Shown: one piece after another, positions 61,028 through 63,322 of the stretch
Numbering within the stretch: position 1 is the stretch's first letter
Layout: every line of letters begins with the position of its first letter
From: Candidatus Eiseniibacteriota bacterium
Lineage (GTDB): Bacteria > Eisenbacteria > RBG-16-71-46 > CAVPCR01
Direction: 5' to 3'
Length of the DNA stretch: 64,000 bases
NCBI GenBank assembly: GCA_963823555.1
Contig: CAWGMA010000001.1
Location: 1,856,001 to 1,920,000, forward strand
The notes under the pieces: generated by a model
What the model saw: only the letters and a program-made list of their open reading frames with translations
Database searches by the model: none
What the model was told of the DNA's origin: nothing
Translations under genes and position numbers: made by a program

Positions 61028-63322
61028 ATGCTGATGAGCGTCACCACGGAAGAGACCGTGCGCCCGATCGTGGGGACCGGAAATGGAAGCGAGATGACGG
61101 CCAATCCCCCCCTGCCGTTCGATCTGAGCGCCTTCGAGACGCCCGACAAGCCGGTGAACCAGAACGGCACCGCGAAGCTCGACCTGAAGAAGCGGATCCT
61201 GAAGACCATGGATCTCGCGCTCGCGATCACGGCCCGCGGGATCTTCAACGCGATCCAGCTCATCAACCGCCATCGTCCAAATCCGGCATTCACGCCCAAG
61301 TGGTCGGACAAGCCACTGCTCAAGTCCTGGGAGCGATCCAAGCCCACCCTCGGCTGGCCGCGCGAGACCGATTCTCTATGCCCGAAGTGCGTCCAGGAGG
61401 CGCGGGCGAAGATCCTCGCCGGCGATGAGGACTACACCATCCTCGTCAACGACAAGGTGGGTGAGATCAAGGCCCAGATCATCGAGCGCGACGGGCAGGT
61501 CTGGATGATCAAGGACTGTCCGCGCCACGGCCACTTCGAGGACCTGATGGCGATCGACTCCAAGTTCCTGGAGTGGATCGAGAAGAACTTCCCGGGCCGC
61601 GATATTCGCGCCCACAACGACGAGACCCTGCATAACCACGGTTCGAGCACCATCCAGTTCGGTCGCGGCTCGGTCCTCACCGTGGACCTCACCAATCGGT
61701 GCAACATGATGTGCGATCCGTGCTTCATGGACGCGAACCAGGTGGGGTTCGTCCACGAGCTCAACTGGGATGACATCAAGGAAATCCTGGACAACGCGAT
61801 GACCATCAAGCCGCGGCGGCAGATGTCGGTCCAGTTCTCCGGAGGCGAGCCCACGATCTCGCCGCACTTCCTCCGCGCCGTCAAGTATGCCCGGGACCTC
61901 GGCTTCAACAGCGTGCAGGCGGCCACCAACGGCATCGAATTCGCCAAGAGCAAGGACTTCGCCCACGCCGCCGCCAAGGCCGGCCTCCGCTACGCCTACC
62001 TCCAGTTCGATGGCATCGGCAACGACGCCAACAGCCATCGTCACATCGGCAACCTGTTCGACGTCAAACTCAAGGCAATCGACAACCTCTACGAGGCCGG
62101 CGTCGCCGTCATCCTGGTGATCACCGTCGTCAACGGCGTGAACAACGACCAGGTGGGACCCATCGTCCGCTTCGCTCTCGACAATCCGAAGAAGATCGCG
62201 TTCCTGGCCTTCCAGCCGGTTTCGTTCACCGGTCGCGACGAGGAGATCACCGATGATCGCCGGCTCCGCCAGCGCTACACGCTGTCGCACCTGGCCTACG
62301 ACGTGAAGGCACAGACCGGGATCGGCGAGCCGCGGCGTGACTGGTTCCCGATCTCGCTCATCGGACCCTTCTCGGCCTTCGCGGACCTGGTCCACGGACC
62401 GGGCGCCGACTGGGGACAGATGAGCTGCGGCTGCCATCCCAACTGCGGGGTGGGTACGGCGGTTCTCGTCAACAAGCAAACCAAGGAGTACGCGACCGTT
62501 CCTCAGTTCCTCGATGTCCCTTCGCTGGTCGCCGACGTCAACAAGATCACCGATGCCGGCCGCGGCAAGTGGTTCTCGAACCTCATGATGGGGCTCGCGC
62601 TGCTCAAGAACTACCGGCCCTTCTCCGCGCCGCCCAGCCTGACCCTGCTCGATCTCCTCAAGAAGTGGGACAAGTCGTTCGGGCTGACCGGGCGCGATTA
62701 CGGCTCCCTCGAGTACAAGGATGTCTGGAAGCGGCGCGAGGACCCCTGGAACTTCCTCTTTGTCGCCGGAATGTGGTTCCAGGACCTCTTCAACTACGAC
62801 TTCCGCCGGACCGAGATGTGCATCATCCCCTACGCCACCCAGAAGGGAGAGATCTCCTTCTGCGCCTACAACACCGGGCATGGCTGGCGGAACATCATCG
62901 AACACATGCACATGAACGCAACCGTCGCCCAGTGGTACAAGGAGCATGGTAAGCACGAGGTCTTCGCCGGTGGCAAGGATGTACCGCTCGAGGATTACGA
63001 GCACGCACTCGTCATCAATGCCGAGGACGCAGCACGGGTCCGCGATCGCGGGGAAGCGCCGCTGACCGCTCATGAGGAGCGGCTTGCGGCGCGCAAGGCG
63101 GCCCGTCAGGCCCAGGTCGTGCGCCAGTACTACGAGGAAGCGGTTCTCAAGAAGAAGCGCGCCGACCAGGGTGTCGTCACGTTCAAGCTCGGCGGAAATG
63201 GCCATGGCGACCACGGTGGCAATGGCAACGGTCACGGCAACGGCAACGGCAATGGCAACGGTCATGGCCAGGCCGGCGCCCCCGGCAACGGCTCGGGGGC
63301 CGAGACCCATTCCCAGAGCTAG
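61028..63322 (+). CDS. Radical SAM protein of the Tes/GDGT-MAS (MJ0619-like) family
   Basis: AAGGAGG RBS; SLCPKC...KDCPRHG, DLTNRCNMMCDPCF, QFSGGEPT, ATNG, YLQFDG, FQPVSFTGR, CGCHPNCG, C-terminal CII..SFCAYN. Confidence 0.85.
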   Translation: MLMSVTTEETVRPIVGTGNGSEMTANPPLPFDLSAFETPDKPVNQNGTAKLDLKKRILKTMDLALAITARGIFNAIQLINRHRPNPAFTPKWSDKPLLKSWERSKPTLGWPRETDSLCPKCVQEARAKILAGDEDYTILVNDKVGEIKAQIIERDGQVWMIKDCPRHGHFEDLMAIDSKFLEWIEKNFPGRDIRAHNDETLHNHGSSTIQFGRGSVLTVDLTNRCNMMCDPCFMDANQVGFVHELNWDDIKEILDNAMTIKPRRQMSVQFSGGEPTISPHFLRAVKYARDLGFNSVQAATNGIEFAKSKDFAHAAAKAGLRYAYLQFDGIGNDANSHRHIGNLFDVKLKAIDNLYEAGVAVILVITVVNGVNNDQVGPIVRFALDNPKKIAFLAFQPVSFTGRDEEITDDRRLRQRYTLSHLAYDVKAQTGIGEPRRDWFPISLIGPFSAFADLVHGPGADWGQMSCGCHPNCGVGTAVLVNKQTKEYATVPQFLDVPSLVADVNKITDAGRGKWFSNLMMGLALLKNYRPFSAPPSLTLLDLLKKWDKSFGLTGRDYGSLEYKDVWKRREDPWNFLFVAGMWFQDLFNYDFRRTEMCIIPYATQKGEISFCAYNTGHGWRNIIEHMHMNATVAQWYKEHGKHEVFAGGKDVPLEDYEHALVINAEDAARVRDRGEAPLTAHEERLAARKAARQAQVVRQYYEEAVLKKKRADQGVVTFKLGGNGHGDHGGNGNGHGNGNGNGNGHGQAGAPGNGSGAETHSQS
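63190..63297 (+). repeat. (GGCAAC/GGCAAT)n low-complexity repeat encoding a Gly-Asn-His tail
   Basis: Translates as GGNGHGDHGGNGNGHGNGNGNGNGHG. Confidence 0.8.

Follow-up and report, generated by a model that had tools for sequence, protein, structure and literature searches.

The window, by which we mean the whole stretch of 64,000 nucleotides that was analysed, carries at 61028..63322 of the forward strand a gene (P0001, 764 aa) for a radical SAM protein of the Tes/GDGT-MAS family, from an Acid_2410-like branch devoid of the ligands of the N-terminal iron-sulfur cluster, [Fe4S4]N. The open reading frame is real, as the initial annotation had assumed, and has a GC3 of 0.87. A strong ribosome-binding site had also been described in front of it, and the Shine-Dalgarno motif AAGGAGG is indeed present at 61019..61025 (+), but its spacing suits the ATG at 61034, which it precedes by 8 nt, and not the ATG at 61028, which is 2 nt away; judged by this spacing, P0001 likelier begins at Met3, giving 762 aa. 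Two Pfam domains, Zn_ribbon_HMPTM (residues 111-175) and Radical_SAM (221-383), were found in P0001, and no transmembrane helix, the top 19-residue hydropathy being 1.8. The start codon of a Gemmatimonadota homolog (L027) matches Met3 of P0001.

The best match of P0001 in the PDB is GDGT-MAS (7TOL; E 2.7e-65), the structure of MJ0619. According to PMC9433317, MJ0619 has four metal sites: a rubredoxin site (C9/C12/C33/H36), [Fe4S4]N (C73/C77/C80 plus a His), whose role is not established there, the radical SAM cluster, and [Fe4S4]C with a labile Met439, on which the substrate radical is kept in the form of a C-S bond. P0001 carries a rubredoxin-like CxxC...CxxH site as in Tes (C118/C121/C164/H167; PF23545, Pfam and motif; 61373..61531, +) with an insertion of about 20 residues, so that 42 residues separate the two ligand pairs, compared with 20 in MJ0619 (PMC9433317). 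Aligned to 7TOL, the radical SAM motif CxxxCxxC (C225/C229/C232; 61700..61723, +) is followed by F233, which together with Q396 and S399 corresponds to the 5'-dA contacts Phe106, Gln268 and Ser271 of MJ0619, while the position of Arg210 is taken by H339, next to a conserved R338. The C-terminal cluster domain (62426..62872, +) retains by alignment C473, M582 (= Met439), C598, Y602 (= Tyr459) and C612; the cysteines of [Fe4S4]C in MJ0619 are themselves assigned from the alignment, as the source numbers only Met439 and Tyr459. A helical stretch at about 495-580 aligns in sequence with the helices of 7TOL that precede Met439 and is likely the second lipid pocket.

The fourth site is the exception. 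P0001 has no equivalents of C73/C77/C80, and the CxxxCGxCxxH motif of [Fe4S4]N is replaced by a His-rich loop, HNDETLHNHG (residues 196-205, with H196/H202/H204; 61613..61642, +), in which one His only remains of the original ligands. The auxiliary ligands, which the initial annotation had wished to see compared, are thus kept at the C-terminal cluster and absent at [Fe4S4]N. Its motif set was recovered for CxxC...CxxH, CxxxCxxC, YLQFDG (324-329) and CHPxCG (CHPNCG, 469-474), but not for a literal C..FC.YN: FCAYN lies at 611-615, and C598 is 14 residues before C612. CHPxCG had further been taken for a motif of MJ0619, which in fact reads SHQHCG at this place. Beyond the cluster domain, a conserved C-terminal extension specific to the branch, as seen from conservation among relatives, covers residues 630-712 (62915..63163, +), and a poorly conserved Gly/Asn/His tail follows after residue 712.

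These features are shared by the close relatives of P0001. Of 205 such proteins, 197-205 carry the cysteine and GMWFQD motifs and 202 the His loop, and none has the Cys motif of the N-terminal cluster. The latter motif is also missing from all of 120 Vicinamibacterales-type proteins; the His-loop pattern of P0001 was likewise matched by 0/120, so the loop varies. Against the NCBIfam models, P0001 scores 315 bits for Tes (NF045702; cut-off 450) and 217 bits for TrsS (NF045646; cut-off 490). Mss is characterised by CNxxCxGC plus VEPC in about 446 aa, whereas P0001 reads CNMMCDPC and lacks VEPC. In all sequence tests of its catalytic core P0001 appears Tes-like, and as judged from these comparisons it is a conserved three-cofactor variant of the Tes family, outside the Tes equivalog.

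For the phylogeny, 150 representatives were reduced to 98 (420-820 aa, at least 60% cover). A FastTree tree of 112 rows (those of at most 700 aa plus chosen branch members) and an IQ-TREE tree of 49 of these 112 were labelled by HMM score (88 proteins scanned); the latter was computed under LG+G4 with no mixture model, and the tree contains TrsS as outgroup and not MJ0619. The P0001 branch forms a single clade (support 100/99; IQ-TREE, 49 rows). Together with two degenerate proteins and P0136 it makes up a long-branch clade (100/100, length 0.44), nested in a 21-row clade (100/92) that also holds the canonical bacterial paralog. One of the degenerate proteins, P0247 of Terriglobus roseus, represents a sister lineage without the C-cluster cysteines. 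The clades that enclose P0001 (100/92 and 99/96) include proteins above the Tes cut-off, and TrsS is a separate clade (100/99). The placement in the Tes clade, suggested earlier as a check, therefore came out in favour, with P0001 nested among Tes-like proteins and TrsS apart; in these trees the P0001 branch is a derived lineage of the Tes family.

The genome (G000; 4.62 Mb, 67% GC, 92.5% complete) has a second, canonical Tes gene, P0122 (C1:2165370-2167256, -), with all four metal sites, 575 bits and an E value of 1.8e-128 to 7TOL. The initial identification of P0001 with Tes/MJ0619 hence stands for the family, given the 7TOL match and the Tes-like nesting, but not for Tes itself, given 315 bits against 450, the absent [Fe4S4]N ligands and the canonical paralog elsewhere. 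Downstream of P0122 lies a PlsA/Ger-like gene in BcrAD and DUF2229 pieces with many frameshifts. Compared with the genome of an order-mate (G001), this region shows 129 one-base gaps, concentrated in the PlsA/Ger-like gene. Short-read contigs (run X1) are identical to the Tes gene over two pieces (0 differences) and gapped in the Ger-like gene, for which reason the frameshifts are likely an assembly error. This Tes-Ger pairing was seen only in G000 and G001 among the loci examined; a Ger-like gene stands beside Tes in 0/11 canonical acidobacterial loci and in 0/4 canonical loci of the other families of the phylum.

Genes for Ger and Mss had been proposed as a genome search, of which the first part was successful and the second was not. 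An intact Ger-like protein of 1066 aa is encoded at C1:1699407-1702604; its two BcrAD domains and DUF2229 make up the BBD core of Ger. The Mss motif pair CNxxCxGC plus VEPC did not turn up in the genome, and the CNxxCxGC protein encoded at C3:790206-791498 was rejected as an Mss candidate, having neither VEPC nor GGEP. A radical SAM protein of 596 aa (C4:676729-678516) resembles Acidobacteriota and Nitrososphaerota clusters and, being equal in length to Acid_5783, is labelled Grs-like by inference. A set of Tes, Ger and Grs genes has been proposed for S. usitatus (PMC10087280). P0122 with the Ger-like and Grs-like genes strengthens the earlier suggestion that this organism may make membrane-spanning lipids. 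That it bears LPS was supported by LpxC scores over the cut-off, and its description as FCB-like is plausible: 5 of 12 organism-named NusA matches are Ca. Eisenbacteria, with about 60-62% identity, in a sister clade. We tentatively regard the organism as a probable member of Ca. Eisenbacteria.

Upstream of P0001, at 60605..60669 (+), we found a conserved non-coding element of three direct repeats, starting at 60605, 60625 and 60646 (20 and 21 bp apart; family consensus CCRTTY), together with a -35-like TTGCCA at 60664. Its 44-bp stretch 60625-60668 recurs 89 bp 5' of P0122 with 34/44 ungapped identities, the next match in the genome reaching 29/44. The element also precedes both paralogs in G001 and an operon of a radical SAM gene plus the branch gene in G004 and, more weakly, in G003. 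A matrix made from the branch upstream regions of these three genomes gives its top scores in G000, 52.8 and 38.3, to the two Tes-family genes, followed by 13.8 for the next site. Upstream DNA sufficed for the search at 74 of the 80 named loci, and 10 of these 74 lay above the strongest control with the seed matrix. After iteration, 22 loci score 30-50, namely 15 Terriglobia, 4 unclassified Acidobacteriota and 3 Vulcanimicrobiota, with no Blastocatellia among these 22 of 74 searched; three doubtful rows (L028, L033, L090) were dropped, and leave-one-out scores were 24.7-46.8. For held-out loci the element came out as the best match upstream of 4/7 branch genes, once only weakly, and was prominent upstream of 2-3 of 11 canonical ones. 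With a matrix built from the 22 foreign sites, the site at 60605..60669 ranks second in G000 (18.3), and the P0122 site falls outside the top 14.

The element is likely a regulator site, and P0001 and its canonical paralog P0122 are likely co-regulated in this organism, which would offer a handle on the regulation of membrane-spanning lipid synthesis. Among the top matches in this genome none lies before the Ger-like or Grs-like genes, and one lies before a gene for a small membrane protein (C4:445575). A sigma-54 promoter was considered for the region upstream of P0001 and rejected, as there is no canonical site (best 9 matches) and the spacing of the element does not fit. The same region gave no match to the sigma-70 consensus, and the element none to Rfam.

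The neighbourhood of the branch is lineage-specific, with neither a conserved operon nor lipid-gene neighbours in 85 loci. An uncharacterised radical SAM gene, whose best NCBIfam matches are SPASM/NirJ-like models, all below cut-off, precedes the branch gene in 14 of them. The cydAB and pterin-dehydratase genes downstream of P0001 are common only to G001 among the loci of four order-mates.

P0001 matches at least 8000 clusters formed at 90% identity, and 80 organism-named loci comprise 67 Acidobacteriota, 8 Gemmatimonadota, 3 Vulcanimicrobiota and 2 others. In whole-genome searches, counted by hand, a match of at least 51% identity was taken as the P0001 branch and a full-length match of 34-40% as canonical-like Tes; each class sample, except that of G051, includes a centre genome chosen for having the gene. 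The branch is present in 98 of 101 Terriglobia genomes (once as a fragment at a contig end) and in 60 of 61 Blastocatellia, with canonical-like Tes in 11/101 and 3/61, respectively. The class of G652 has the branch in 42/81 genomes and is likely Vicinamibacteria (subdivision 6), since its protein is 82% identical to a match named Vicinamibacterales; the same assignment was rejected for the class of G309 (17/71 genomes positive), whose proteins are only 60% identical to such a match. The class of G051 gave 4/7. Over Acidobacteriota as a whole, with three candidates scored per genome, the best E value went to the branch in 141 of 301 genomes, 37 had weaker matches only and 123 none; this count and the 17/71 include G068, which is flagged as unpublished. 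Outside this phylum, 6 of 101 Gemmatimonadota genomes were positive, as were 2 of 121 in the organism's own phylum. Within its own order the branch was present in 5/5 genomes, compared with 0/36 others, which suggests a gain by the ancestor of the order. The plasmid search gave one distant archaeal match only. These class-level profiles correspond to few independent events, and no iso-diabolic-acid-negative class is named as a control.

Branched GDGTs (brGDGTs) serve widely as proxies of temperature and pH, and Acidobacteria are their best-known producers. Iso-diabolic acid makes up 12-49% of the fatty acids in strains of Edaphobacter and Occallatibacter (PMC11354219, PMC12935467). For 14 acidobacterial producers of this acid from subdivisions 1, 3, 4 and 6, Table S21 of PMC13159169 lists Mss in 0/14 and Tes in 3/14 at a cut-off of 30% identity, and an alternative acidobacterial pathway was concluded there. 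Acid_2410, the likely counterpart of P0001, lies just on this cut-off, with 30.1% to MA_1486. A screen with a 20% cut-off finds homologs in T. roseus and Chloracidobacterium (PMC8941075), both missed by the stricter one; the T. roseus entry found here (P0247) is the degenerate form. E. aggregans, a brGDGT producer, has a single Tes homolog (32%, 4e-61; PMC8941075), whose values seem to resemble Acid_2410 rather than Acid_5929. The idea that bacterial Tes homologs synthesise brGDGTs has already been published (PMC8941075, PMC10087280), and as of PMC11868695 no activity of such a homolog was confirmed. MA_1114 yielded no GDGT, and Halobacteria carrying homologs make none (PMC8941075). In S. usitatus, iso-diabolic acid was not detected according to PMC10087280, and a tetraester is cited by PMC13274423; in Koribacter, Tes homologs were linked to iso-diabolic tetraesters (Chen et al. 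2025, doi 10.1016/j.gca.2025.05.019). Our literature search found no paper that separates the P0001 branch or notes its missing cluster; Chen et al. 2025, supplement file 1 of PMC8941075 and the network figure of PMC9433317 may bear on this novelty.

We are inclined, with slightly better than even confidence, to read P0001 as a radical SAM enzyme that couples the tails of membrane lipids. Following the Tes mechanism, it would join two lipid chains, probably iso-C15 acyl or alkyl, at their terminal carbons into a membrane-spanning lipid, using three metal centres rather than four, with the ligands of the surface N-terminal cluster gone. As in MJ0619, a 5'-dA radical would take a hydrogen from one chain end, the C-terminal cluster would hold the lipid radical as a C-S bond, and a second SAM would activate the second chain to form the C-C bond. 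Electrons might enter via the rubredoxin site or the replacement His site, and the Ger-like and Grs-like enzymes are predicted to add ether bonds and rings. The retained 7TOL ligands, the Tes-like nesting, the class profile and the element before both Tes-family genes support this reading. Against it stand the score of 315 below 450 bits, the branch length of 0.44, the loss of one cofactor and the lack of lipid-gene neighbours in the 85 loci; nor does homology by itself make a protein a synthase. The likely Vicinamibacteria are positive in 42/81 genomes only, S. usitatus has Acid_2410 and yet its iso-diabolic acid was reported as undetected, and the matrix from the 22 foreign sites misses the paralog's site in its top 14.

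Since cultured Terriglobia and Blastocatellia make iso-diabolic acid without Mss, and the branch is near-universal there with its coupling ligands kept, it is a prime candidate for their missing synthase. With regard to the tail-coupling enzyme for brGDGTs in Acidobacteria, the profile points to one gene, found in 97-98% of the sampled Terriglobia and Blastocatellia. We go one step further only tentatively, with confidence somewhat short of even: the branch would be the missing iso-diabolic acid synthase of aerobic Acidobacteria, overlooked by the 30% identity screen, and the probable Eisenbacteria lineage, having acquired the gene with its regulator site, would use it alongside canonical Tes and the Ger and Grs-like genes and be a new source of brGDGTs at the level of a phylum. 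If true, a three-cofactor enzyme would mean that Csp3-Csp3 coupling by Tes can do without the N-terminal cluster.

P0001 may also act on lipids to give another product, such as an intramolecular macrocycle, a mid-chain cross-link or a sulfur lipid, with coupling left to canonical Tes or another enzyme. Tes itself yields macrocycles and S-lipid intermediates, a common upstream element fits a shared pathway, and the surroundings of the C cluster show branch-specific changes (Trp for His after the Met, Pro for His before the Tyr, an additional Cys467). The branch is, moreover, kept beside canonical Tes here and in several Terriglobia and Blastocatellia, and such coexistence suggests non-redundant roles. 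Most genomes of these two classes, however, have the branch without canonical Tes, and their cultured, Mss-less members need a coupling enzyme, so that we consider this alternative unlikely, roughly a one-in-four matter. A non-lipid substrate (a cofactor, peptide or hopanoid), as for the MJ0619-family offshoot TrsS, seems more doubtful still. The family does include TrsS and members of unknown function (PMC9433317), and the preceding radical SAM gene in 14/85 loci would suit such a role, but P0001 groups with Tes-like proteins and apart from TrsS, retains the Met439/Tyr459 equivalents and the aligned helical subdomain, and has its upstream element in common with P0122, the canonical Tes in front of a PlsA/Ger-like gene. 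That P0001 is a partner of canonical Tes with weak activity or an accessory role, as the lost cluster and the sister lineage (P0247) without C-cluster cysteines might suggest, is very improbable in view of 60-80% identity across phyla, invariant catalytic ligands and its presence mostly without canonical Tes.

Taking P0001 as a candidate coupling enzyme, its domain order is that of GDGT-MAS/Tes MJ0619 (PDB 7TOL, 7TOM; NF045702), with which it shares the rubredoxin and radical SAM sites, the three C-terminal cysteines with Met439, and the equivalents of Tyr459, Phe106, Gln268 and Ser271. It differs from MJ0619 in an N-terminal extension of about 110 residues, a conserved C-terminal one of 80, and a bacterial host, so that the substrate is presumably not phytanyl. 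TrsS (NF045646) is a branch of the same superfamily with a rubredoxin knuckle as in P0001, but keeps [Fe4S4]N and has no Tyr459 equivalent. Mss of Thermoanaerobacter and Thermotoga shares radical SAM chemistry and a proposed iso-diabolic/diabolic acid product with P0001, but belongs to another radical SAM family, marked by CNxxCxGC and VEPC (PMC13159169). Acid_2410 of S. usitatus (Q025C7; 714 aa, PF04055 at 166-330, 30.1% to MA_1486) is listed in the supplement of PMC10087280 as the second Tes homolog of that species, a BLAST hit, with no description in that listing as cluster-lacking or as a separate branch; from its length and domain offset we infer that it is a member of the P0001 branch. 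The canonical bacterial Tes (Acid_5929 type, here P0122) is 34% identical to P0001 and falls in the same 21-row clade, but has all four metal sites, scores above the cut-off and is rare in Terriglobia and Blastocatellia; in this genus, P0122 and P0001 have their upstream element in common.

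The genome from which the window was taken also encodes a canonical four-site Tes paralog (P0122; contig C1, 2165370-2167256, equal to 8368-10257 of its locus L001, minus strand; 575 bits), which outranks the window gene as a candidate for conventional brGDGT synthesis. Directly downstream lies a PlsA/Ger-like gene (L001, 2600-8100, minus strand), an identical arrangement being seen in the order-mate genome G001. One-base indels are abundant throughout the PlsA/Ger-like gene in both genomes while the genes on either side are clean, and these indels are likely to be assembly errors. 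Both paralogs end in a Gly-Asn-His low-complexity tail (window positions 63191-63319; P0122 residues ~565-575), the two tails being similar to each other and poorly conserved among relatives.

Divergent from the canonical Tes gene are a DUF2203 gene located upstream of it (L001, 10638-11066) and a benzoyl-CoA reductase-type cluster (L001, 11348-18085, plus strand), comprising a Zn dehydrogenase, an enoyl-CoA hydratase, two HGD-D subunits and two activase-like genes, a gene content that suggests anaerobic aromatic degradation. A DUF2203 gene is also found close to the branch gene, i.e., the window gene and its relatives without [Fe4S4]N ligands, in six of 85 loci (L034, L054, L056, L059, L061, and L073).

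The window gene itself is followed on the same strand by genes for a pterin-4a-carbinolamine dehydratase and cytochrome bd (cydAB; window 63425-64000 and locus L002, 864-3258), a gene order common to both genomes, and these neighbors may link it to low-oxygen growth. In 14 of the 85 loci, the gene for an uncharacterized radical SAM protein of roughly 390 aa precedes the branch gene (e.g., L030, 4636-5802; L143, 5170-6384; L148, 7624-9021), its SPASM/NirJ-like matches all falling below the cut-off; a homolog with 43% identity is present in the genome of the window (C2, 105632-106699). Our gene calls additionally place on the minus strand of the window (34244-40771) an ORF of 2176 aa, the start of which resembles a signal peptide. 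The best-scoring site in this genome of the foreign-only matrix for the triple direct-repeat element, at C4:445575 (minus strand), is a candidate possibly due to chance, positioned 210 bp upstream of a gene for a 274-aa membrane protein.

A second branch copy with about 52% identity occurs in many Terriglobia and Blastocatellia (e.g., G041, C1:192868-194697, locus L120), and one Terriglobia genome (G185, C18, locus L164) has a canonical Tes gene on the same strand as the branch gene, at a distance of about 6 kb. A degenerate sister lineage, represented by P0247 (Terriglobus roseus WP_014786616.1) and P0244, has lost the C-terminal cluster cysteines as well, and for it the radical-storage step as described for Tes is therefore impossible.
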